This document shows positions 36,043 through 59,078 of a stretch of 64,000 nucleotides of DNA, one piece after another. A program made the translations under genes and the position numbers. The notes below the pieces were generated by a model. It had not been told where the DNA came from, made no database searches, and was given only the letters and a program-made list of their open reading frames with translations. The first letter of the stretch is position 1. The number at the start of each line of letters is the position of its first letter. This stretch comes from Cyanidioschyzon merolae. Lineage: Eukaryota. The stretch is taken from NCBI GenBank assembly GCA_000091205.1, contig AP006494.2, one strand, 5' to 3'.

Positions 36043-37869
36043 CTAGTGCTCGATGCCTGCTGCCCCGGAAGCACGCGTTATCGAAGTTGCACATCGAAAC
36101 CCTGAAAGCATGAAATCCCGAAGCGCGAGAGCGCGTCCCCAGATACTATCTTCCATGTAGATGACGCGCATCAAGGCGTCGATCACGTCTACTGCTGCGT
36201 GATGTACGGGATACTGCAGCGGCTTTGGAATACGAGTGCGCAGCATCCAGAACCGATCCTGTGTAACACTTTTCATAAGACAGCAGGCGCGCAGCCCCTC
36301 AATACCAGCAAATCGATCGGAACCACTATCTTTCGTACCTCCGAAGGGCAGCGACTGGCATAAATAATTCACGCCAAAATCATTCTCATTCACCATTCCG
36401 ACGAGCAGCTTATTTCGAATCATCGCTGCACGCTTGCGATCAGCAGAGAAGACGCTGCTCCCGAGGCCGTACGCTGAACCGTTCACGATCCGAATTGCCT
36501 CCGCATCACCGTCGAAGGGGGTGATGATCATGACAGGACCGAACACTTCGTTTTGCATGATTCGGCTGTGTAGGGGCACGTCAGTCAAGAGCGTTGGCTC
36601 CCAGTACGAGCGCCCTGCGCGCTTGCCGCCACATAGGAGTCGCGCGCCGTCTTTCACTGCGTCGTTGATCAGTGACTCGAGTTCCCGCAGGGAGGCCTCG
36701 CCCATGGTCATTGCACCGAGATCGACGCCGATACGGAGTGACTGCACGCGCACCTGCATCTCGGCAACGAAACGCTCGTAGCTAGGGCGCTGCACCAGGA
36801 TGCGCTCGATCCCGACACAATTCTGGCCGCTGTTTTGAAAAACACCGCGCATCGCAATATCAAGTGCCTGCTCGAGATCCGCGTCATCACAGACAATAAA
36901 AGCGTCCTTACCGCCGAGCTCCAGGACACAGGGTTTCAGTTGCTCGGCTGCTGCCATGGCCACCTGACGCCCGACTCTCGTCGAACCCGTGAAGAATACT
37001 TTGGCAACACCCTTGTCGACAACGAGCGCCTCGCCGGCGCTGGCGCCGCCAGTGACCAACTGCACCAGTTCCGATGGATGCTTGCAAGCACGAAGCACAT
37101 GCCGCACAAGCTCGACATAGTAGACAGAGCACCAGGAGCTATACTCGCTGCTCTTAACGACGATTGCATTGCCCGCAAACAGGGCCGCTAATATCGGATT
37201 CATGAGGTTGTGGAATGGATAGTTCCACGGCGCAATCGCCGCAATGACACCCAGTGGCTCGAACTGCACCCAGGCGCGTTTATGCATGGTGAGCGGTCCG
37301 ACCGAGCGATACTCGGGAGCCAATGCCCGCTCGCCTTCGCGTAAAAGCCAGCGGATCTTCTCGAGCGTCGTGAGTAGCTCGCCCAGATATGCATCGACGA
37401 ACGTTTTCCCGGTTTCCAGCACGCTAGCCTGCAGGATAGACTCGCGATTCGCCAGAATTGCTTTGCGGAGCGCACGTAGAACTCGGCGCCGCTCAGCAAA
37501 CGACGTCTCTCTCCAGAGTTGCTGGGCATCGGACGCCACTTGAACGCGAGCGCGTACATCTGCCGCACTCTGGTCCAGTACCCATCCTAGCAGTCGACCA
37601 GTTGCTGCCGCCGCGCACCGGTGACAGCGATCGGCTTCGGTTTTCTTTCGACAACAGATGGGTTTTCCGGGTTGATCATCGGCGGTAACAGGAATAAGGA
37701 AAAGGCCGTCCTCCGTGAGGTCCGGCAGGCCCAGTGTCACGCACGGGACGTGCTCTCCGCGTTTGCAGAGCCATCTTGTCAGAATCAAACCAAGCAGCGC
37801 AGACACCAGTGCCGCGATAACGCTCCCACTCGTTAAGGGCAGAGCATGTATGGGTTGGTCAAGGTGCAT
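36043..37869 (-). CDS. Aldehyde dehydrogenase (ALDH superfamily), with N-terminal hydrophobic segment
   Basis: ALDH catalytic motifs FTGSTRVGRQV, LELGGKDAFIV, FQNSGQNCVGIERILV (catalytic Cys) and EVFGPVMII. ORF-track start at 37923 reads through from the adjacent mobile-element end; the first plausible Met is MHLDQPIH at 37869. Confidence 0.85.
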   Translation of the reverse strand: MHLDQPIHALPLTSGSVIAALVSALLGLILTRWLCKRGEHVPCVTLGLPDLTEDGLFLIPVTADDQPGKPICCRKKTEADRCHRCAAAATGRLLGWVLDQSAADVRARVQVASDAQQLWRETSFAERRRVLRALRKAILANRESILQASVLETGKTFVDAYLGELLTTLEKIRWLLREGERALAPEYRSVGPLTMHKRAWVQFEPLGVIAAIAPWNYPFHNLMNPILAALFAGNAIVVKSSEYSSWCSVYYVELVRHVLRACKHPSELVQLVTGGASAGEALVVDKGVAKVFFTGSTRVGRQVAMAAAEQLKPCVLELGGKDAFIVCDDADLEQALDIAMRGVFQNSGQNCVGIERILVQRPSYERFVAEMQVRVQSLRIGVDLGAMTMGEASLRELESLINDAVKDGARLLCGGKRAGRSYWEPTLLTDVPLHSRIMQNEVFGPVMIITPFDGDAEAIRIVNGSAYGLGSSVFSADRKRAAMIRNKLLVGMVNENDFGVNYLCQSLPFGGTKDSGSDRFAGIEGLRACCLMKSVTQDRFWMLRTRIPKPLQYPVHHAAVDVIDALMRVIYMEDSIWGRALALRDFMLSGFRCATSITRASGAAGIEH

Positions 37870-37882
37870 CACCTTGACACTA

Positions 37883-40312
37883 CAGTAGTGGCGAGAAGCC
37901 CGCCCTAGACAAGGCGCCGCCAACTAACGTGCAGACGCCTCGCAGTTTTTTTGGACCGGCCATCGACTACTGCTTCCACCTTTTTCTCATATGGTTCGAC
38001 TTTAAGTGATTGTCCAACAAAGTTCCCTCTTGTCAGCTCTGGAGGTCTCGTCTCCAGCACCGCACATTTCCTTATATTGATCGCGGCGATAAAGTCTCGA
38101 TTCAAAAACTCCATACGTTTCTTGCCATCAATGGTTGTGCTAACCAATACGAGTAGCCCTCGAACTTTCGCCATCCTTTCCATTTCCTCTTCCGTCAGCG
38201 GTCCGTGCTTTGCTATATCTTCAGGGCTCCTCTAGCGCCTTTCCATCTCGACCCTTTGAAGTGTACACCCCAGTTCATGGTGTGTAAACGTCGTTCGGAA
38301 CTCATCTACAGGTATCGTAACAAAACGCCTTGTGCACTCCTTGTGCACCCTCGTCGTTGGAGCTGGTGTACACCCTTTTTGTGTCTTCCAGCGCCCTGCT
38401 CCGTACGCTACTACGAGCCTTTGAATTTCATTCTCCTGCAAGGCGCTCAACTGATTGCGAAAATTCGCGAACGCGCGCTGCCTCCCACCGTATAGATTCA
38501 TTCGCAGACGAGCCCACCGGGGCTTGGTATACTCCTCCCACAGCGCATCCCGATGCGCAATGCGAAATTCCATGAACTCCCGAAAAGCTTCAAAGTCCGC
38601 TCCGCGGCTCGTCACCTCGCTCAAAGCTTCCAGGTGCTCTTTCACTCCTGCGTTCCACGTCTCGATTTTCTTCCTCGCATTCCTTATACCGGATTCTCGA
38701 TCGTATCACGCTCTCGAGAATCTCAACAGACGCATGTCTTTCTGACGCAAGTTACCGTCAGCGCCATCTTCCGCACGCTTGGGAGCAGCGATGGCTATGA
38801 TATTCGTATTCCCAGGGTCCGCGCCAACGACAAAGTCGTTATCCTGGACTTTCTGCGTCTCAATACCCGCCTCCTTCTTTTCTTCATGCTTCGTCGCGTC
38901 AACCGTAAAGTCGTTATCCTGTACTTCCTGCGTCGCAGCACCAGCCTCCTCCTTTTCTTCATCCTTCGTGACGGGTGCAGCCGGGGACGGAACTGGACGA
39001 TCTGTCTTCAAGCGCCGATAGTGTACACATATATATGGATACTCCATCGGTTTCGATCACACCAGTGAATACCTTTTGTTTGCTGACTTTGAGACGTTTG
39101 AAATTGAAGATGTTCTTCCAATACGTCTCCCGGTTTTCGCCGGTAAACTCCTCCCTGCTAACATTGAACTCTGGACTGATCTCCCTCATGATGCCACGAA
39201 GGATTCTGGAATCGATAGTCACGAAATGTGACGTGATGTTGCACATTGGAACCACGCTGATGCGCTTACCAATTAGGACAGCCTTCCGTCTCTCCCACTC
39301 TCCATTTGTCTCTTCACTCAGCATCACCTCTGCCTTGCACTCGAGTTCTCGGTCCAGAAACACAAAATAGCGCAGGATGAGGCGATAGTATCTTTCCTGA
39401 TCTTTTTCAGCTCTGATATCTTGTCTGTTGGATTCGCCAGCCCCAGTACAGCACGATGTTCTTGTATCACCGCACGGATTACAGAGGCTTCATTCGTGCT
39501 CCTGCGCGACTTCTTCTTGTCGACGGATTCGATCTCATGTTCACGCTTGCGATGCTTCGTGATGCCATTGATAATCGACCATATCCCCTTGCGAGAGATG
39601 CCAGGGTACAGCGCAGACACGGCGCGTATCATGAATCGTTCGAGATTCATTATCGAATGGTTCCTCAGGTTCGTGAGGTACTTCATCGCCCCATAGTCTT
39701 AAATACCCCAGTCACCCTTGATTCGAATACCCTCGAAGCTGTAAAAGGGATGTTTTTCGTGGAGGGCATCTACTAGCTCATTTTTCCTCCGCGCTTCCTC
39801 TGTACCAAGCATCAGGCGACTAAGAAACGTCTTGTCGCAAAACTCGTCTGGAATCTCGACCGTTTCCATGTGCGTCACGTCTTCGTACATCTCCCTCACC
39901 AAATGCATCAGTCCTAGCGACGCATTGACAATACTCTTCGAGTACGAGTCGACACGTGTTTCGATAGCGTCTCGCAACTTTTCCTTGTAGGGATCCTTGA
40001 TATGTCCAAGAAGAAAGGTTTGCACAACCATCTCGTCGGACAGTTGTCTTTCCCGCAGCCTTCGACGTAGGGCCTCCCCCTTTCGGTCCTTCTTCTCTTC
40101 CTTTTCTTCTGGACTCGGCACTGTTTTTTGTTTTTTTCTGGCAGCCGGCGACCCTGGGCCTCCAGGATCGTCAACTTGCATTTTCATGACTTTCCTTTTT
40201 TGTTTTTTGAAAAAGGACGCCCTTTGAACGCTTCTGTTATATACTGCTAATAATCAATTGAATATTTTTACTTGAGGTTTGAAACAAAATGAACTGAAAA
40301 ACTGTACTTGTC
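37883..40312 (-). mobile_element. Copy A of a ~2.4-kb repeated element encoding a TnpB/Fanzor-like RuvC nuclease (minus orientation); its 3' end lies 14 bp upstream of the ALDH start codon
   Basis: Near-identical to copy C (53069..55497) and to the 3' 1.3 kb of copy B. 5' boundary set where similarity to copy C ends, 3' boundary where similarity to copy B ends. Confidence 0.65.
37905..40187 (-). pseudogene. TnpB/Fanzor-like nuclease gene, copy A, disrupted (TAC>TAA nonsense near 39690; 1-nt deletion in an A-run near 39330 shared with copy C; in-frame TGA and TAG shared by all copies)
   Basis: Six successive ORF segments (39699..40187, 39324..39686, 38959..39363, 38706..39047, 38232..38645, 37905..38183) that concatenate into one TnpB-like protein: NLS-like N-term, FVVGADPGNTNIIAIAAP (RuvC-I), VVAYGAGRW...PVDEFRTTFTHHELGC, NRDFIAAINI (RuvC-III-like). 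Confidence 0.6.
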
Positions 40313-42391
40313 TATAAAGTTAAAGAAAATACAACTTTTACATTAGATCTACATGCTAGAGATCAGGATCACGTTCCCCTTCAACGGCGACATGTGCGTC
40401 GTGTCTCATGCCTGCCTGATCTCCCAGGCGTGCTCACCGAGCGCGATGCAAACTAGTCGCAAACTATTTATCAAAGAACAACTATCTTAAAGCCCCACAC
40501 ATTACGTCCGCCTAAGAGGTCTAGTTTTTCCGGAGAAGCTCTGAAAGTGGGTCAACGCGGGGTGTTCGAGCGACGGCGAAGGAAGCCCACGCCAGGGACC
40601 TTTACCGCAACGAACGGAGGGGCAGAGGCAGTAGCAGCAGAGAATGATGACGAGAGTTCTGAGTAGTCATCCGCCCCTCCGGAAACAACGCTGCAGGTTC
40701 GGGCGCAATTCCTGGATCAATCCTCGGACTCGGGCTCAGTATTACCTCCTACCATGGGTGCCAACCTCAACTTTGGAAACAATCTCGGCGGATGCTTTGG
40801 AAGACGGCTGGCAGTATGTTCACTGCCGAAGCTGGAACAAACGACTTGCCCGCCCATGTGTTTTGGGAGCGGATACGTAGCCGCTGAAAGGGTGGTTCAC
40901 AGAGTATCCCCAGTGGTTGAAGGTTGCTCCACGCGTTCGGCAGCGTAACGGTTGCATTCGAATCGACCTTGACTAGAGTACTTCTGATTCTACGCTAGCG
41001 CTGCGCCAAGCACTCAGTGAACGACTGGAATGCACGAGGCGCTTGTGGCATGTGCACTCACACACCCCGTGGAGGGTGCATCTAAATCGACGACGTATCT
41101 CTCGAGTACCGCAGCACTATTCCCATTCCCGTACGCGCTACGACTCGATAGGTTTCGCATCATGGAATATTTGCGGGATAGCCTCGGAATTGAACTACGA
41201 GATATCGAATTACCAGTACAGTAAAGAGGAACTGATACAAATCGAGGACTCTGCAATAGGAAAAGAGACCCAGCGGGATACGGAGAAGGAGACACAAAGG
41301 CCTCATGATCCACCTAGATGCAAAATAACCAGAGAAAGCAGCTCAGGAAAGAGCCCGAAGAAGACGAAGAAGACCAACAAGAAGAAACAGAAGAATAGAA
41401 AGAAGAGCTCCCGAACGAGCCCATCATGAGTGATCCCCTGAAAGAGCACCCCAGCGGGAACTCAAGAAAGCTGCCGCCAAACTCAATCACCTACTCACAG
41501 CGCTGAAGATCCGAAAAGCCATGCATGCAAGCCTTTAGACCAATTGGCACGCGAGTATGTATATGGGAATCAGAAGATTGCCAGAGAACTGGGACTGCTT
41601 GCACCAGAACGCAACAGTTGCAAACCTCGGTACCTGAAACGACGTACCAAAACTCGGAATGATGAATGCCACCGACTCTATAAGATCGTCAACCGCACCG
41701 CCATACGTGCCAACGCTGGAGACAAGGAAGCGAAAGCAGCGCTACCGGCGCTACAGGCGCAACATGAGGAAGCTATCAAAAGAAAGAAGAAACGTTCCAG
41801 AGAAGACAAACGAGAGGATCGAAACCGCAAAATCGCCTCCCTGACGGAATCTATGCTAGAGAGCACCAACGAAGATGAGACCTGACGCTCCATTCGATCG
41901 AGACTGGACGCACCAGAAAAGTGCTTGGGGCTCACACCAATCGTTCATAAGGAATCGCTGAGGACGGAGAGTGCCTCAGTGAATGAGACCGGGATAGACC
42001 ACGGGACAGAGCTGCATGAAGAAGCAACTGGGCACTGCCAAGACCCAGTCCATTGGTACCAATATGCTGCAGAACTACCGCGCCTCGAACATTACCAGCA
42101 CATGAATCGTTCCAGTGCAAACTACAGATATGATGCGAAAAATATCAATCGTGAAATGAGACAGTGTCGAGCGTCAGCGCACGCAGCACTGCCGCATAGA
42201 CCCACAGCGTCTAGCGACGAGCATCGCCCCAGTCTATCGCACGCGCCGCCGCGAAGATCCGGCACCGCAGGCCGCCGACGTGGGCGTGTCTGCGGCATCG
42301 GCTAGCTTCCAAGCGCCTTCAGCAAGCGCGGCCTCTGCTCCTGTTGCCGCTGCCGCTCGTGGTAAACGTACGTTACCGCACTTTGTGGGGC

Positions 42392-46704: not shown

Positions 46705-49085
46705 CTTCTTACCTGGGGGCATGAAGAAGTGTGTTCTATTTCAAAAATAAACAAGCCAATGGAAAGCTATCGACATGCAGGTCGGGGATCCTGGAGGGCC
46801 ATCTTCGCCGGGTTCGGCGAAGAAAACGGAAAACAATACCGATCCCAGGGGAACAAGAGAAGGCGAAGAAGCACAAGCAGGAAGCCAGGCGTCAAAAGCA
46901 ACTAGAAAGACGACAACACCGCGAGATTTGAGTGAAAGCTTGTCTTCTGAGACATACCAAGGATTCGTACAAGCAAAATTCACAAGAGGCTGTCAGAATC
47001 CTTGTCGCGTCGTACTCCAGGAGGGAACATTAGGCTTCTTTAGGACTCATGCATTTGCTGAAGGAGATGTACGACAACGTGCCGCATATGGAAACAGTCG
47101 ATATTCCAGAGGAATTTTTCAACAAGACCTTTATTCGTCACCTGACGCTTGGCACAGGGGAAGCGCCGAGGAGAAATGAACTGGTGCATGCCCTCCATGA
47201 AAATCATTCCGAGTACCGCTTCAACGGTGTTCGATGCAAGGGTGACTAGGGTATGTACACCTACGAAGCGATGAAGTACCTCACGAATCTGAAGAACAGT
47301 ACGACCATGAACCTCCAACGTTTCATGATACGCGCCATCTCTGCGCTGTACCAGGGCCTCTCTCGCAGAGGGATACGGGCCATCATCGACGGCATCACGA
47401 ACGATAGTACGAGTGAACAGGAGACCGAATTCGTCAAAGAGAAGACATCACGCAGGGGAAAGAATGAAGCTTTTGTGATCGGTGCAGCTATTCAAGAGCA
47501 TCGTGAAGTCTTGGGGCTTGTCAACCCAGCAGAAATGGTATCAGATGTGAAAAAAGATGAGGAATGATGCTCTCCCCTCAACCTGTGCTATTTCGTATTC
47601 CTGAACCGAGAACTCGAACGCAAGGCGGAGACGGAGCAAAGTGAAAAAAAAGAAGAGACAGACAGACAGACGGACAGACGGAAGGCTGTGCTGCTGGAGA
47701 AGCGCTTCAACGTCGATCCGTTGTCCAACATCAAGTCATATTTTGTGACAATCGACTCCAAAATCCTTTACGGCATCATGAGGAAGATCAGTCCAGAGTT
47801 CAATGTTAGCAGGGAGGAGTTTACCGGCGAAAACCGGGAGACGTATTGGAAGAACATCTTCAATTTCAAACGTCTCAAAGTCAGCAAACAAAAGGTATTC
47901 ACTGGTGTGATCGAAACCGATGGAGTATCCATATATATGTGTACACTATCGGCGCTTGAAGACAGATCGTCCAGTTCCGTCCCCGGCTGCACCCGTCACG
48001 AAGGATGAAGAAAAGGAGGAGGCTGGTGCTGCGACGCAGGAAGTACAGGATAACGACTTTACGGTTGACGCGACGAAGCATGAAGAAAACAAAGGAGCGG
48101 ATCCTGCGATGCAGAAAGTCCAGGATAACGACTTTGTCGTTGGCGCGGACCCTGGGAATACGAATATCATAGCCATCGCTGCTCCCAAGCGTGCGGAAGA
48201 TGGCGCTGACGGTAACTTGCGTCAGAAAGACATGCGTCTGTTGAGATTCTCGAGAGCGTGATACGATCGAGAATCCGGTATAATGAATGCGAGGAAGAAA
48301 ATCGAGACGTGGAACGCAGGAGTGAAAGAGCACCTGGAAGCTTTGAGCGAGGTGACGAGCCGCGGAGCGGACTTTGAAGCTTTTCGGGAGTTCATGGAAT
48401 TTCGCATTGCGCATCGGGATGCGCTGTGGGAGGAGCATACCAAGCCCCGGTGGGCTCGTCTGCGAATGAATCTATACGGTGGGAGGCAGCGCGCGTTCGC
48501 GAATTTTCGCAATCAGTTGAGCGCCTTGCAGGAGAATGAAATTCAGAGGCTCGTAGTAGCGTACGGAGCAGGGCGCTGGAAGACACAAAAAGGGTGTACA
48601 CCAGCTCCAACGACGAGGGTGCACAAGGAGTGCACAAGGCGTTTTGTTACGATACCTGTAGATGAGTTCCGAACGACGTTTACACACCATGAACTGGGGT
48701 GTACACTTCAAAGGGTCGAGATGGAAAGGCGCTAGAGGAGCCCTGAAGATATAGCAAAGCACGGACCGCAGACGGAAGAGGAAATGGAAAGGATGGCGAA
48801 AGTTCGAGGGCTACTCGCATTGGTTAGCACAACCATTGATGGCAAGAAACGTATGGAGTTTTTGAATCGAGACTTTATCGCCGCGATCAATATAAGGAAA
48901 TGTGCGGTGCTGGAGACGAGACCTCCAGAGCTGACAAGAGGGAACTTTGTTGGACAATCACTTAAAGTCGAACCATATGAGAAAAAGGTGGAAGCAGTAG
49001 TCGATGGCCGGTCCAAAAAAACTGCGAGGCGTCTGCACGTTAGTTGGCGACGCCTTGTATAGGGCGGGCTTCTCGCCACTACTAT
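46705..49085 (+). mobile_element. Copy B of the TnpB/Fanzor-like element (plus orientation); 5' ~1 kb divergent, 3' ~1.3 kb near-identical to copies A/C
   Basis: Homology to copies A/C from the leader (caaaaataaacaag...atgcaggtcggggatcctgg) through the shared 3' tail ...gggcttctcgccactact; lacks the ~60-bp TATA-containing leader segment present in A/C. Confidence 0.6.
46775..49062 (+). pseudogene. TnpB/Fanzor-like nuclease gene, copy B, disrupted (AGA>TGA nonsense at ~47565; extra stop between segments 47049..47249 and 47253..47567; shares the conserved in-frame TGA and TAG)
   Basis: ORF segments 46775..47179, 47049..47249, 47253..47567, 47688..48008, 47920..48261, 48283..48735, 48784..49062 collinear with copy A/C segments. 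Copy B is in-frame where A/C carry the 1-nt deletion. Confidence 0.6.
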
Positions 49086-49157
49086 ACACCGCTGCCGTCG
49101 TTCGACTTAGAACGGCTTTTGGTATTGGCGGTGGTACAGCGGCCTTGCCTCGTGTTT

Positions 49158-50084
49158 ATGGCAACGAGCGTTTCGGAAAGCGAGTTGCAACTGCTTCCGC
49201 ACTGGCTTTCGTGTATCCATGCGAAGCGGTCAACCTGGACGTGTTCCCAAGACTATGCGCGGTTCGTTCGGCTCTTGCGGGATATCTCCTTGGAGCTCTA
49301 TGTGGCGCGCAACCAGCCCAACGTGCTCGTTCAACTCGCACGTTACGGTTCAGCGTGCACACGGGTTGTGAACGATCTTATCACGGTCTGGAGTGTTCCG
49401 CTTCTACACGAGAGCGTTTCCAGGGCGGTGATTCGGTTTCTAGTGGTTTGTCAGACCGGCAGCGGACCAGAGCAAGTCAAGAGGCGGGCTCTGGCCTGGG
49501 CGCGACACCTGCTGCGACTCGCTGTCTCTCCAGCGATCAACGCAACCTTTATCGATGAGGGCTTAGGTTCAGCTCGAGTTGTGGATGAACTTTGCACTGT
49601 TATCGGGGCCATGGGTTGCCAGGCGCGCATACCAGCTGAACTTGGCGTTCTGATTCCATCGCTCATTCAGGGTGCATGCTGTGCAGACCTTGTTGCTGCT
49701 CTCGTGCCGACGATTGCGGCAATGCTCGAGTCGCAAGCGACCAGTCCCGCATGGCGTCATGCCGTTCGCTGCGCATTCACCTGGGAAGATGCGGAAACGA
49801 AGTACTGTGCTTTTCGCGACGGGTTGTCGGCGACTCTGCAAAATATGCTCCTCGCGGCAGACGCGCAGCTCTTGTGCCAGTGCCTCCAGTCCCCGGAGGC
49901 ACTACTCAAAACACCGCTGGATCATCTCAGCGAGCGATTCGATCACATTCGCCTCTTCTTGCGTTTACAACATGGAGCGGATCCGGATACCAAGGCATCT
50001 GCTGACGACGTCAATACAGTCTCGACGCAGAACCAGAGCGGACCGGATCTCGCAACGACGCCTCGAGCAGGAACGATGACCTGA
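49158..50084 (+). CDS. Hypothetical protein of unknown function (start reassigned to first ATG downstream of the element end)
   Basis: ORF-track ORF 49044..50084 starts with a TTG inside the mobile-element tail; coding-like composition continues for ~310 aa after ATG 49158. No recognisable domain. Confidence 0.3.
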   Translation: MATSVSESELQLLPHWLSCIHAKRSTWTCSQDYARFVRLLRDISLELYVARNQPNVLVQLARYGSACTRVVNDLITVWSVPLLHESVSRAVIRFLVVCQTGSGPEQVKRRALAWARHLLRLAVSPAINATFIDEGLGSARVVDELCTVIGAMGCQARIPAELGVLIPSLIQGACCADLVAALVPTIAAMLESQATSPAWRHAVRCAFTWEDAETKYCAFRDGLSATLQNMLLAADAQLLCQCLQSPEALLKTPLDHLSERFDHIRLFLRLQHGADPDTKASADDVNTVSTQNQSGPDLATTPRAGTMT

Positions 50085-52379: not shown

Positions 52380-52860
52380 GTTGGCGAAAGTTTACCTTAC
52401 AGGCGGAAGGTCCCGCGAGCTGAACGAGTGTGCCCGGCGAGTGCTTCATGCGACTCTACAGAGGCAGATGCCAAAGTAAGATATGAGCAGCAGCTCATCG
52501 TAACGCAATGCTTTCTGGGAATAGGAGCAGGACGCTGCGTCTGGGCGTCGCCCTTGTCGCAGCGGACTCCTCGTATATCGCTTCGCAGTGCCGCAGACAG
52601 TACGTCTGTCTGCGCAGCTCGCAGGCTCCCAGAATGATCATGAATCCAGACCCGGTATCGGGTGAAGCATTCCTCGAGCCGAGGCCCTCAGTGGTATAGC
52701 AAAGCCGTTCGAGCTCCATGAACTATCTGCTCCAGCGGTTCAAGCGCAAAGGTGGATGATTAGGGTAGGTACGAGGCACACACGATAGGACGTATGAAAC
52801 GACCAAAATATCCGAGAAGAAGTATAGGTAATGTAAATTGGAGGTAGGTGCTTCATCACG
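52380..52860 (+). repeat. Dispersed repeat family R1 (copy 1); related copies at 60100..60420 (+) and 58340..58640 (-, partial)
   Basis: Shared blocks gtttaccttacaggcggaaggtcccgcg..., gggtgaagca..cctcgagccga.gccct, ctatctgctccagcggtt.aag...ggatgattagg.taggtac.aggcacacacgataggacgtatgaaacgacca.aatatccgagaa...gtataggtaatgtaa read directly in both places. Confidence 0.5.
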
Positions 52861-53068
52861 GACGCTTTCCAGAAAGCCGTTATCCTTTCCGAATTCTAGG
52901 ATCCATGGTCAATGGAAACGTCTTGTCAATAAAAAAATCGCGCTCAATGGGCGCACCCCGGAGATCGGGCAGTCAACTGACGCGATGCGCGTGCCGTTGT
53001 TGAAGGGAAACTCAATTGGGATCAGTAACGTGTTGTTCAGCTGTGAACGTCGGATATCGGTCCAGGCC

Positions 53069-55497
53069 ATAGCAAAGTACAGTCTTTCAGTTCGTTTTTG
53101 TTTCAAACTTCAAACAAGTCCAGTCAAGTGTTTTTTTGCAGTATATAACAGCAGGGTTCAAAGAGCGTTCTTGTTCAAAAAAAAAGAAAGCTATCAAAAT
53201 GCAAGTCCACGATGCTGGAGGCTCAGTGTCGCCGGCTGCTAGAAGAAAACAAAAAACAGTGCCGAGTCCAGAAGAAAATGAAGAGAAGGAGGACTGAAAG
53301 GGGAGGCTCTACGTCGAAGGCGGCAAGAAAGACAACTGTACGACGAGATGGTGGTGAAAGCTGGTCTTCCTAAACATATCAAGAATCCGTACAGGGAAAA
53401 GTTGCGAGACGCTATCGAAACACGTGTCGACTCGTACTCGAAGAGTATTGTCAATGCGTCGCTAGGACTGATGCATTTGGTGAGGGAGATGTACGAAGAC
53501 GTGACGCACATGGAAACGGTCGAGATTCCAGACGAGTTTTTCGACAAGACGTTTCTTAGTCGCCTGATGCTTGGTACAGAGGAAGCGCGGAGGGAAAATG
53601 AGCTAGTAGATGCCCTCCACGAAAAACATCCCTTTTACAGCTTCGAGGGTATTCGAATCAAGGGTGACTGGGGTATTTACAGCTATGGGGCGATGAAGTA
53701 CCTCACGAACCTGAGGAACCATTCGATAATGAATCTCGAACGATTCATGATACGCGCCGTGTCTGCGCTGTACCCTGGCATCTCTCGCAAGGGGATATGG
53801 TCGATTATCAATGGCATCACGAAGCATCGCAAGCGTGAACATGAGATCGAATCCGTCGACAAGAAGAAGTCGCGCAGGAGCACGAATGAAGCCTCTGTAA
53901 TCCGTGCGGTTATACAAGAACATCGTGCTGTACTGGGGCTGGCGAATCCAACAGACATGATATCAGAGCTGAAAAAGATCAGGAAAGATACTATCGCCTC
54001 ATCCTGCGCTATTTTGTGTTTCTGGACCGAGAACTCGAGTGCAAGGCAGAGGTGATGCTGAGTGAAGAGACAAATGGAGAGTGGGAGAGACGGAAGGCTG
54101 TCCTAATTGGTAAGCGCATCAGCGTGGTTCCAATGTGCAACATCACGTCACATTTCGTGACTATCGATTCCAGAATCCTTCGTGGCATCATGAGGGAGAT
54201 CAGTCCAGAGTTCAATGTTAGCAGGGAGGAGTTTACCGGCGAAAATCGGGAGACGTATTGGAAGAACATCTTCAATTTCAAACGTCTCAAAGTCAGCAAA
54301 CAAAAGGTATTCACTGGTGTGATCGAAACCGATGGAGTATCCATATATATGTGTACACTATCGGCGCTTGAAGACAGATCGTCCAGTTCCGTCCCCGGCT
54401 GCACCCGTCACGAAGGATGAAGAAAAGGAGGAGGCTGGTGCTGCGACGCAGGAAGTACAGGATAACGACTTTACGGTTGACGCGACGAAGCATGAAGAAA
54501 AGAAGGAGGCGGGTATTGAGACGCAGAAAGTCCAGGATAACGACTTTGTCGTTGGCGCGGACCCTGGGAATACGAATATCATAGCCATCGCTGCTCCCAA
54601 GCGTGCGGAAGATGGCGCTGACGGTAACTTGCGTCAGAAAGACATGCGTCTGTTGAGATTCTCGAGAGCGTGATACGATCGAGAATCCGGTATAATGAGT
54701 GCGAGGAAGAAAATCGAGACGTGGAACGCAGGAGTGAAAGAGCACCTGGAAGCTTTGAGCGAGGTGACGAGCCGCGGAGCGGACTTTGAAGCTTTTCGAA
54801 AATTCATGAAAGTTCGCATTGCGCATTGGGATGCGCTGTGGGAGGAGTATACCAAGCCCCGGTGGGCTCGTCTGCGAATGAACCTATACGGTGGGAGGCA
54901 GCGCGCGTTCGCGAATTTTCGCAATCAGTTGAGCGCCTTGCAGGAGAATGAAATTCAGAGGCTCGTAGTAGCGTACGGAGCAGGGCGCTGGAAGACACAA
55001 AAAGGGTGTATACCAGCTCCAACGACGAGGGTGCACAAGGAGTGCACAAGGCGTTTTGTTACGATACCTGTAGATGAGTTCCGAACGACGTTTACACACC
55101 ATGAACTGGGGTGTACACTTCAAAGGGTCGAGATGGAAAGGCGCTAGAGGAGCCCTGAAGATATAGCAAAGTACAGACCGCTGACGGAAGAGGAAATGGA
55201 AAGGATGGCGAAAGTTCGAGGGCTACTCGTATTGGTTAGCACAAGCATTGATGGCAAGAAACGTATGGAGTTTTTGAATCGAGACTTTATCGCCGCGATC
55301 AATATAAGGAAATGTGCGGTGCTGGAGACGAGACCTCCAGAGCTGACAAGAGGGAACTTTGTTGGACAATCACTTAAAGTCGAACCATATGAGAAAAAGG
55401 TGGAAGCAGTAGTCGATGGCCGGTCCAAAAAACTGCGAGGCGTTTGGACAACAGATGGAGACGTTTCGCCTGGGGCGCGTTCGCCGCCTCTACTGTA
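53069..55497 (+). mobile_element. Copy C of the TnpB/Fanzor-like element (plus orientation), with divergent 3' terminal ~90 bp
   Basis: Collinear with copy A over ~2.4 kb including the TATA-containing leader gcagtatataacag. Diverges from A/B after ctgcgaggcgt (55441) but keeps a related terminal ...cgccgcctctactgta. Confidence 0.65.
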
Positions 55498-55507
55498 CCG
55501 CTGGTGA
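53198..55507 (+). pseudogene. TnpB/Fanzor-like nuclease gene, copy C, disrupted (early stop after residue ~30 plus frameshift near 53290; 1-nt A-run deletion ~54000 shared with copy A; conserved in-frame TGA 54671 and TAG 55145)
   Basis: ORF segments 53348..54055, 54016..54420, 54332..54673, 54695..55147, 55196..55507. RuvC-I GADPGNTN at ~54554-54575; Cys/His Y/FTT segment 55043-55144; NRDFIAAINI at 55277-55306. Confidence 0.6.
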
Positions 55508-55632
55508 CACCAACGTTTTTCTTTTGAAAGACGTTCGTTGTCAGCGGTGTGCTCGCTGCGCTTTCGCAGCCGATTTTGTGACCCGAACGGCTTTATCGCC
55601 ACTGGGGTGCGGCACCGTGCCCGGTAGCGCTT

Positions 55633-57879: not shown

Positions 57880-57965
57880 GAAAAGCGCGTGCTCCGCCGA
57901 GCCTCCACGTGCGATGGCGCCTGCTGGTGGGATCTCTGGAGCAGCGCCCTGCTGCGGTGCCCTGT
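57880..57965 (+). repeat. Short dispersed repeat R2 (second copy at ~59095..59170)
   Basis: ccgc.gagcctcca.gtgcgatggcgc..gctggtgg.atctct.gagcagc shared between the two loci; gives similar peptide RRASTCDGACWWDLWSS / RGASRCDGARWWYLSSS in the ORF track. Confidence 0.4.
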
Positions 57966-58735
57966 CGTTGCCTGCTGGTTTTTTCAGATGACAAAACGTT
58001 TCCATTGACCATGGATCCCTGAAGTCGGAATGGATAATGGCTTTCGTGAAAGCGTCCATGATGAAGCGCCTTCCCTCAAGTTCCGTTACCCGTACTTCCT
58101 CTCGTCTGCACTGGTCGTTTCGTATGTTCTATCGTACGCCGAGTGCCTGTTTTGAGCACCCACCGTAGCGCTCACACCACTGAAGCAGATGCTGCACAGA
58201 GACAGAACGGCCTTGTCATGCCACTGAGAACGTCGCCTCGACGCGTAGTTCTCCGACACGGAATCGGGATTCATCTTCAATCTGGGAGACAGCAAGCTCC
58301 ACAGTCAGACCTAATGCCTGTGGCAGCGCGAAACGATAGCTAGGAGACAACCGCAACCATGACGACACCTGGATGCATTCTAACCAATTCTAGTCTCAGA
58401 ATAAACAGCGTTGCGGGCGAGTTGCTCAGGTCGCGCCACTGCACGCGCCACTGGCAGGAGCATGAAGCACGATCCTGGGAGACTCGTCTGGCCCGCGGGA
58501 CCTTCCGCCTATAAGGTAAACGTTCGACAGTACGGAAAGCTTTTCTCCCTTGTAACATGTATCTTAGGGGGGAAATAAATATTGATATACTTGCCGGTGA
58601 GTCGTGAGTCTCGTACCTTTTTTCGATATCGCGCATTCAACACGCGCACCTGGGAGGTCAGGCCGTCGCGAGACACGACACGCATGTCGCCGCTGGGGAG
58701 AAACCCGATCGTGACCAATCGTTTACTGTTTGTTC

Positions 58736-59078
58736 TACAGTACAAGTTGTGTTTGCGTTGACGTCGTAGCCGAGTATGGTGTTTCAATTCGATTATGTTT
58801 CAACGCTCATGTGAGCGTATCCAAGCGATTTTTCCCAGTTTGTATCAGAAGCGTTCAAAGGGCGTTGTTTTTCAAAAAAATAAAAAGGAAAGATATGGAG
58901 AAGCCAGTCGAGGATCCTGGGGGCGCAGCGTCGCCGGCAACCGGAAAAACAACAAACAAAAAACAGTGCCGAGTCCAGAGGAACGGAGAAGGACGTAGAA
59001 GCAAAACGGTGCGGCCCTACGTGAAATGCTGCAAGAAAGACGACATTACGACGACATGACGGTGAAAGCGTGTCTTCT
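58736..59078 (+). mobile_element. Copy D: 5'-terminal fragment (~340 bp) of the TnpB/Fanzor-like element (leader plus first ~55 codons), truncated and joined to repeat R2
   Basis: Matches copies A/C from gtacag...gttcaaagggcgtt...aaaaaggaaag.atgga.aagccagtcgaggatcctggggg through ...gacggtgaaagcgtgtcttctaaac, then diverges into R2-like sequence. Confidence 0.5.

Follow-up and report, generated by a model that had tools for sequence, protein, structure and literature searches.

A candidate ωRNA scaffold ending in a sequence-variable hairpin at the right end of CMe-1A-type Fanzor1 elements of Cyanidioschyzon merolae

Focusing on the 3′ ends of three related transposable elements, a 64,000-nucleotide stretch of the genome of the red alga Cyanidioschyzon merolae (contig AP006494.2 of assembly GCA_000091205.1; hereafter the window) was analysed together with relatives of the elements from metagenomes. 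An initial annotation had singled out positions 37883–38200, the end of the first copy, as the expected location of the guide-RNA (ωRNA) scaffold of a TnpB/Fanzor-type nuclease. Judged by sequence comparison, this region is the 3′ end of a CMe-1A-type Fanzor1 transposon, a known red-algal family, and the last ~115–125 nt of the complete element are a probable ωRNA scaffold of CMe-1 Fanzor1, a reading to which we assign a probability of about 0.5. Our confidence is held at this level because only the terminal part of the module, a long hairpin termed S3, is statistically supported; S3 and its position at the element end are real. The annotated place is thus right in kind, as the Fanzor1 identity, the location between the 3′ end of the open reading frame (ORF) and the right end and the overall layout all hold, whereas the conservation argument given for it fails and its boundary lies ~45–50 nt short of the element end. 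The feature at 37883–38200 itself, belonging to an already known element family with the putative RNA at the expected place, is mostly confirmatory.

Fanzor1 identity and history of the family

A profile built from 15 family proteins matched SpuFz1 (PDB entry 8GKH) over the WED/RuvC region with E = 5.9e-8; only this profile search succeeded, as a single-sequence search of the PDB with the ORF protein gave no match, and a single-sequence Pfam search with the reconstructed protein and with the relative P0001 gave no significant family. The score of Pfam PF07282 was weak for P0001 (E = 0.23) and reached 8.9e-7 for the distant relative P0045. The RuvC triad can be read from the translated window ORF as GADPGNTNII, VDEFRTT and NRDFIAAINIR, and the corresponding family motifs (GADPGNTNII, VDEFRTS and NRDFNAAINIR) follow the order D ... 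E-x-x-[TS][TS] ... RD. At the position of the C4 zinc finger (TNB domain) between RuvC-II and RuvC-III, the family has HHELGC...KC and not CxxC...CxxC.

CMe-1A was described in 2013 as a Fanzor1 element of C. merolae, with a ~3.2-kb consensus to which the ~150 copies have ~80% identity, without terminal inverted repeats (TIRs), without defined target-site duplications (TSDs) and without an assigned class, and with a 5′ 635 bp that constitutes a separate repeat, TE-N2_CMe (Bao & Jurka, PMC3627910). The CMe-1A consensus is 86–87% identical to the window copies over 612–650 nt at the 3′ end and 73–84% identical over 238–284 nt at the 5′ end of the core. The two agree in family, in protein, in the ~80% identity among copies, in a copy number of hundreds, in the lack of TIRs and in the adjacent TE-N2_CMe module. 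The 2013 description gave no RNA, no terminal hairpin and no core boundaries, and the published consensus stops inside the 3′ arm of S3, 35 nt into the hairpin (PMC3627910).

The family was sampled as 349 relatives from a metagenome scan, of which 80 loci were retrieved, and the 3′ ends were compared in an alignment of 51 non-redundant sequences. At the protein level 45 close relatives were found, all in JGI metagenomes, including the intact 752-aa ORF P0001; two lower-identity protein matches, P0043 and P0044, were considered as distant relatives and set aside, as they belong to the same ~80% family and add no depth. In the codon-position entropies of L001 (6001–8430) and 21 aligned full-length loci, purifying selection appears only in the C-terminal RuvC half, with 0.2–0.3 bits at positions 1 and 2 compared with 0.5–0.7 bits at position 3, and in the N-terminal half all three positions are equally variable. 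The frame is open from RuvC-I to the end in only 19 of 79 copies and over its full length in one or two. Examples of intact family proteins are those of L001 and L010, the latter with an ORF of 772 aa. The codon-level constraint that persists family-wide on the RuvC half argues that the family has been active for a long time.

The terminal hairpin S3 and the module that it closes

The window contains three copies of a ~2.6-kb element, copy A on the minus strand and copies B and C on the plus strand. In B and C, as in most relatives, the sequence CTGTA is followed by ~40–55 nt that form a long hairpin opening with CAC and closing with GTG, as exemplified by CACCGTTGGCGTCGTTCGA-CTT-TCGAACGGCGTTGATGGTG, with 19 pairs including five G·U. 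In copy B, S3 (CACCGCUGCCGUCGUUCGA...GGCGGUG) occupies 49087..49133 (+), beyond the boundary drawn in the initial annotation, within a covariance-model match at 49076–49137 of 60.9 bits, and in copy C a second sequence type, with the core AACGTTTTTC-TTTT-GAAAGACGTT, occupies 55495..55552 (+) and aligns to the end of the CMe-1A consensus. At least five S3 sequence types were found at the same position, each a hairpin starting with CAC right after CTGTA: TCGTTCGA/TCGAACGG; AACGTTTTTC/GAAAGACGTT, found in copy C and in the published consensus; GCCGGCGAG.../...CTCGCCGG; CACTGGCG/CGCCGGTG; and the type of copy A, which is discussed below.

The mean minimum free energy (MFE) of the 50 nt after CTGTA is −18.6 kcal/mol, compared with −11.9 kcal/mol in 287 GC-matched flank windows (p = 1.3e-13), and the difference between the sense and antisense strands is −4.8 kcal/mol compared with −0.7 kcal/mol in the controls (p = 2.4e-9). 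Each hairpin contains ~3 G·U pairs, which points to S3 belonging to the transcribed strand in the sense orientation. In a MAFFT alignment of the main S3 type, covariation was 0.131 compared with 0.110 in shuffled alignments, nine of 500 of which reached the observed value, and five pairs were changed on both sides. In a covariance-model alignment of 62 distinct ends, which are related sequences in an alignment fitted to structure, 27 double-sided cells were counted compared with 12.4 after shuffling (none of 500 shuffles). S3 cores occur solely next to element ends, as seen for 57 of 57 core matches and for every significant model match in 419 kb, and past S3 the different loci have unrelated flanks, as would be expected of guides.

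The module starts ~35 nt ahead of the ORF stop, at GGAGGCGTCTGCAC, with a stem, continues with a GC hairpin (S2) and a near-invariant CCACTACTGTAC/CCACUACUGUAC motif, whose block ends at CTGTACAC, and is completed by S3, which follows the motif immediately and extends to the last base that is homologous across the family. Two solo modules without an ORF (L029:277–395 and L057:346–470) have their start exactly at GGAAGCGTCTGCAC and contain stem, GC hairpin, CCACTAC motif and S3, ~770 nt upstream of full elements. These solo modules, together with the occurrence of S3 only at element ends, delimit a unit of ~115–125 nt. Each solo module is directly preceded by a hairpin and then TTATTTT.

Characterised Fanzors have their ωRNA scaffold in the interval from the ORF 3′ end to the right end and take the guide from the flank, as does SpuFz1, with a 75-nt scaffold and a 14–15-nt guide (PMC10432273, PMC10530073). 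The Fz1 ωRNAs combine a conserved stem-loop, SL1, with one to three variable stem-loops before the guide (PMC10432273, PMC11423790), and Fanzor guide RNAs abut the right end, with solo copies known in Chlamydomonas (PMC10432273, PMC10530073). The comparison with published architectures that the initial annotation had proposed gave agreement, as the layout of the ~115-nt module matches that of characterised Fanzor1 ωRNAs. The scaffolds of SpuFz1, GtFz1 and PpFz1 (Saito 2023, PMC10432273; Xu 2024, PMC11423790) are ~75–120 nt long and stand in the same place as the module, with few stem-loops, the one nearest the guide being variable in length and sequence, with a guide from the flank and with solo or 'ghost' copies of the RNA region. 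Unlike in these, the start of the candidate module overlaps the last ~12 codons, its S3 is unusually long (up to 19 bp) and the right end of the element has no inverted repeat.

By analogy with these systems, we infer the RNA role, the processing and the position of the guide. The RNA would be produced along with the 3′ end of the nuclease mRNA or derived from it, and Fanzor1 would bind it; its expected length is ~110–150 nt, with a 5′ end near GGAGGCGUCUGCAC and a 3′ part that passes S3 and reaches the flank. The variable stem-loop next to the guide would be S3, and the 15–20 nt of host-derived RNA that follow S3 directly would act as the guide; in copy B the putative guide, placed by analogy with SpuFz1, would lie in the flank directly after S3 at 49134..49155 (+). 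Such a guide may direct cleavage of matching DNA flanked by a target-adjacent motif (TAM), for example empty donor sites. Since the three nuclease genes of the window are dead, an RNA of this kind would depend for its action on an intact Fanzor1 from another locus.

Points against a scaffold and alternative explanations

In favour of the scaffold reading, the tails of the three window copies fold into three stem-loops each, with MFEs of −54.7, −51.4 and −42.7 kcal/mol (z = −4.0, −3.4 and −3.3). In copy A, the annotated region (37881..38200, −) comprises the last ~98 ORF codons and a 24-nt tail ending in ...CCACTACTGTA; the first stem-loop (GCGAGGCGUC...GGCGCCUUGU; 37909..37943, −) lies inside the last ORF codons, the GC hairpin S2 (GGCGGG-CUU-CUCGCC; 37886..37907, −) begins at the stop codon TAG (37905..37907, −, read in the family ORF frame) and the motif CCACTACTGTA (37881..37891, −) is at least 90% conserved in the family. 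In copy B, the first stem-loop (49023..49059, +) is likewise inside the ORF and is followed by the stop codon TAG (49060..49062, +), by S2 (GGCGGG-CTT-CTCGCC; 49063..49077, +) and by the conserved motif CCACTACTATA (49076..49086, +). In copy C, the first stem-loop (55435..55469, +) lies in a substituted terminal segment, before S2 (55472..55490, +) and the conserved motif CCTCTACTGTA (55487..55497, +).

The initial annotation had placed the three copies and the equivalent regions, 48780–49085 in copy B and 55190–55497 in copy C, correctly; copy A ends at 37881, and by the earlier definition B ends at 49086 and C at 55497. Family sequence, or sequence of equivalent structure, continues for ~45–50 nt beyond this end in B, in C and in ~45 of the 51 relatives. 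The near-identity of A and B over their last ~300 bp, from which selection on the tail had been argued, amounts to 94% over ~310 nt and is not specific to the tail, as the two copies are 97% identical over 1,435 nt; their identity is 92.5% over the last 66 nt and 95% over the 1.1 kb before these. As the copies arose by recent duplication and resemble each other to the same degree throughout, their likeness cannot show selection on the tail. Across the family, conservation falls towards the end, with mean pairwise identities in the 51-sequence alignment of 82% in the last 205 coding nt, 76% in the 69-nt tail and 62% in the next 40 nt, the terminal hairpin. The 318 nt that were flagged are mostly ordinary coding sequence, and the noncoding stretch between the stop and the earlier boundary measures 24 nt and not the ~45 bp that had been given. 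The inverted repeat that had been assigned to this stretch does exist in copy B, as AGGCGTC (49027–49033) and GACGCCT (49049–49055) within the first stem-loop, with a spacer of 15 nt instead of 13; it sits within the last 11 ORF codons and does not covary family-wide. The substituted terminal segment of copy C was confirmed: the last 66 nt are only 66–67% and the last ~70 nt 72–73% identical to A and B, and a 1-nt deletion in an A-run shifts the frame. The last 70 nt of C derive from another subfamily.

Several observations weigh against a scaffold. In sequence, both the tail and S3 show lower conservation than the ORF; blocks of at least 90% conservation occur in the tail (GGCGTCTGCAC, GTCTAGGGCG and above all CGCCACTACTGTACAC). 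Over the final 200 nt of the ORF, the variability at third codon positions and synonymous sites is not lowered. Four candidate helices that precede the motif, namely AGGCGTC/GACGCCT, the alternative GAGAC/GTCTA, which includes the stop codon, GGCGRG/CTCGCC and the long-range CAGUAGUG/CACUACUG, are 81–86% pairable, and none of them covaries beyond shuffles. The folding and covariance check that had been suggested for the 3′ ends thus yielded the three stem-loops and the support for S3, and no covariation for the helices before it. In other family members the register in which the first stem pairs is not the same, and over the 330-nt 3′ region RNAalifold retained only a 4-bp GGCG/CGCC helix, the core of S2 and the only consensus helix of the tail that it keeps, and a coding-region helix without covariation. 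An all-against-all scan of column covariation was dominated by wobble-tolerant columns and was uninformative. A search of the window against Rfam gave no match at the gathering score, a search of 48750–49200 at an E-value threshold gave chance-level matches only (E > 5), and a tRNA search found none. All three window copies and most relatives are pseudogenes, and a one-strand hairpin that tolerates G·T is also expected for a single-stranded DNA transposon end.

Two further observations concern the link between S3 and the element. Six loci (L011, L045, L051, L057, L061 and L069) share a 92% identical S3 (CACCGTTGGCG...GATGGTG), whereas their ORF ends and tails are only 80–83% identical; an S3 decoupled in this way could be target DNA or a DNA-level end exchanged by recombination. 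Copy A shows 97% identity to B as far as CTGTA and has, at the junction and in place of the family S3, a perfect 9-bp hairpin, GTCAAGGTG-ATG-CACCTTGAC (37858..37878, −), that is unrelated to S3. The loop of this hairpin is the predicted ATG of the aldehyde dehydrogenase (ALDH) gene downstream (ORF 36043–37869) and its 3′ arm is formed by the next three codons (2–4). As only nine perfect hairpins of this kind occur in the 64-kb window, the probability of chance placement at the junction is ~1e-3. The identical junction was found in four other metagenome contigs with a 99% identical ALDH, for example L083, all of which break inside the element. Taken together, the replacement hairpin of copy A and the six loci suggest that the terminal hairpin has a history of its own, either evolving or being acquired separately from the remainder of the element.

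The main rival to the scaffold reading, possible and on balance unlikely, is that S3, perhaps together with the left-end palindrome described below, is a DNA-level signal of the transposon end, serving as a single-strand hairpin for a putative transposase or for fold-back priming, as in IS200/IS605, Helitron or Replitron elements. Such a role need not exclude that of an ωRNA; the right-end hairpin of IS200/IS605 serves both the transposase and the RNA, and S3 could do the same. The lack in CMe-1A of TIRs, of defined TSDs and of an assigned class fits this explanation, as do the hairpins at the extreme right end and the GC-rich palindrome at the left end, the strand-specific structure and the decoupling of S3 from the rest of the element; the different perfect hairpin of copy A suggests that structure matters and not sequence, and hairpins are general at the ends of HUH transposons. 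With IS200/IS605, the family shares a TnpB-homologous nuclease, a strand-specific right-end hairpin, a left-end palindrome and the absence of TIRs. Unlike IS200/IS605, it resides in a eukaryotic host, has left and right hairpins that are unrelated in sequence and has no TnpA (Y1 HUH) gene; no transposase ORF was found in the element or its flanks, or in or near any of ~90 loci. Fanzor1 genes are often carried by Helitrons, and Helitron and Helitron2 likewise have a hairpin near the 3′ terminus with pairing kept by compensatory changes. Unlike in Helitrons, however, S3 directly adjoins a conserved 12-nt motif and extends to the extreme end of the element, no CTRR-type terminus follows the hairpin, and there is no 5′-TC terminus and no RepHel gene. 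The Reps of Replitrons have not been found in red algae, and the many conserved G·U positions fit RNA better than DNA.

A right end defined by hairpin structure and not by sequence, through hairpin-dependent single-strand or fold-back insertion or through RNA-guided homing, is a doubtful proposition at present; it is suggested by the at least five unrelated hairpin sequences at one position and by the copy A hairpin being partly host coding sequence.

It is improbable that the flagged region has no function of its own, such that the likeness of A, B and C reflects recent duplication or gene conversion of a dead element and the predicted helices are incidental or features of the mRNA 3′ untranslated region (UTR). 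The stops and frameshifts common to the copies, their mosaic identity (A and C 98% over the 5′ 2.1 kb, A and B 97% over the 3′ 1.4 kb), the lack of covariation upstream of S3 and the lack of excess conservation at synonymous sites would all be expected. However, S3 is far stabler than the flank controls and strand-specific, with compensatory change across the family, the noncoding CCACTACTGTAC block is at least 90% conserved compared with an average element identity of ~80%, and the RuvC half is still codon-constrained in a family that was long active.

The weakest alternative is that the element ends at ...CTGTA(C) and that S3 is target DNA, its 5′ arm being the guide; the element would insert immediately on the 5′ side of sites able to form hairpins, or home there through RNA-guided cleavage and repair. 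In line with this, the strongly conserved block does end at CTGTACAC with variable sequence after it, this is exactly the point at which A and B part, host coding sequence makes up the 3′ arm of the copy A hairpin, the similarity of S3 does not follow that of the elements and the absence of solo S3 hairpins as insertion targets in ~0.5 Mb could mean that every target site was converted. Against it, the S3 types are each shared among loci, dozens in all, whose downstream flanks are unrelated, and none stands alone in that sequence; the published consensus of ~150 C. merolae copies reaches into S3, the solo tail modules carry it and a guide enclosed in a 19-bp hairpin would be hard to access.

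Window copies, left end and implications

Copy A extends from its left end at 40447 to 37881 (−), where the CMe-1A alignment also stops, and copy C from 52937 to 55497 (+) by the earlier right end, to which S3 is to be added. A and C are 98% identical over the 5′ 2,136 nt and A and B are 97% identical over the 3′ 1,435 nt, and the 5′ part of copy B is only 78% identical. The three copies share two in-frame stop codons: a TAG in place of CAG (EMERR*RSPED; 38232–38234 (−), 48733–48735 and 55145–55147 in A, B and C) and a TGA in place of AGA (FSRA*YD; 38706–38708, 48259–48261 and 54671–54673), and all three are also frameshifted relative to intact relatives. An alternative genetic code or introns were ruled out as explanations of the stops, as intact intronless relatives have AGA and CAG at these positions. 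The same two stops in all three copies show that A, B and C are duplicates of one already dead gene; together with the mosaic identity, they indicate that duplication took place after inactivation and was accompanied by gene conversion or recombination among the copies. A 75-nt (25-aa) tandem repeat lies in the Fanzor ORF just upstream of the RuvC-I aspartate (...KHEEKKEAG..QEVQDNDFVVDA), at 38820–38969 (−), 47998–48147 (+) and 54410–54559 (+), with two units in the window copies and a number that varies up to four to six units in relatives such as P0001 and P0005. The window also contains a fourth copy, D, which is partial: at 58617–59078 (+) it comprises the left end, the 5′ leader and the ORF start, with 79% identity to the 5′ consensus of CMe-1A; no 3′ part was detected.

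A GC-rich palindrome, ATCGCGCTCRGTGAGCGC, marks the left end of the Fanzor core, and this end starts with A[T/G]CGCG ~60 nt upstream of a GTTGAAGGGAAACG landmark. The palindrome reads GCGCTCA-G-TGAGCGC, or GCGCG-gtcgata-CGCGC in another subfamily; in copy A the left end is ATCGCGCTCGGTGAGCACGCCTGGGAGATC (40418..40447, −; palindrome GCGCTC.G.GAGC), and in copy C it is ATCGCGCTCAATGGGCGCACC... (52937..52998, +), directly after a TE-N2_CMe-like A-run. Shared repeat modules of at least four kinds are found in front of the left end, and the bases 5′ of this end differ between subfamilies, so that the published 3.2-kb element looks composite; with such differing modules 5′ of the left end, no TAM could be derived from the loci. 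A TE-N2_CMe-like repeat at 52750–52936 (+), ending in an A-run (..GGAAACGTCTTGTCAATAAAAAAA), adjoins the left end of copy C, and an inverted solo copy lies at 57965–58140, upstream of the partial fourth element. The TE-N2_CMe repeat has the opposite orientation in the published CMe-1A consensus; these differing orientations and the solo copy suggest that TE-N2 is an independent, possibly poly(A)-tailed repeat and not a part of the Fanzor element.

The host genes of the window, ALDH, TCP-1, HSF and bZIP, are intronless and eukaryotic, and the nearest named homologues of the ALDH are from Cyanidiophyceae, the best being 63% identical (Cyanidium caldarium). Copy A ends ~10 nt upstream of the predicted ATG of ALDH, so that the 5′ UTR or the promoter of this gene would sit inside the transposon. 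A related species (locus L086) has the same HSF–TCP1–ALDH synteny with a TCP1–ALDH gap of ~500 nt and no element; the intergenic DNA of this empty site could not be aligned to the window, and exact element boundaries were not obtained from the comparison.

In conclusion, the CMe-1 Fanzor1 family, in which intact copies have been kept through long divergence, carries at its right end a strand-specific hairpin whose structure is retained while its sequence varies. If the module that ends in this hairpin is the CMe-1 ωRNA, it would provide the guide-RNA scaffold for a red-algal, thermoacidophile-derived RNA-guided nuclease, and it would set the true right end of the element, which was left undefined in the 2013 description. 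If the right end is instead defined by hairpin structure, hairpin-dependent insertion would be a eukaryotic counterpart of the 'peel-and-paste' of IS200/IS605. The structure-kept, sequence-variable S3 and the host-derived hairpin of copy A bear on how such elements move without TIRs, TSDs or a transposase.

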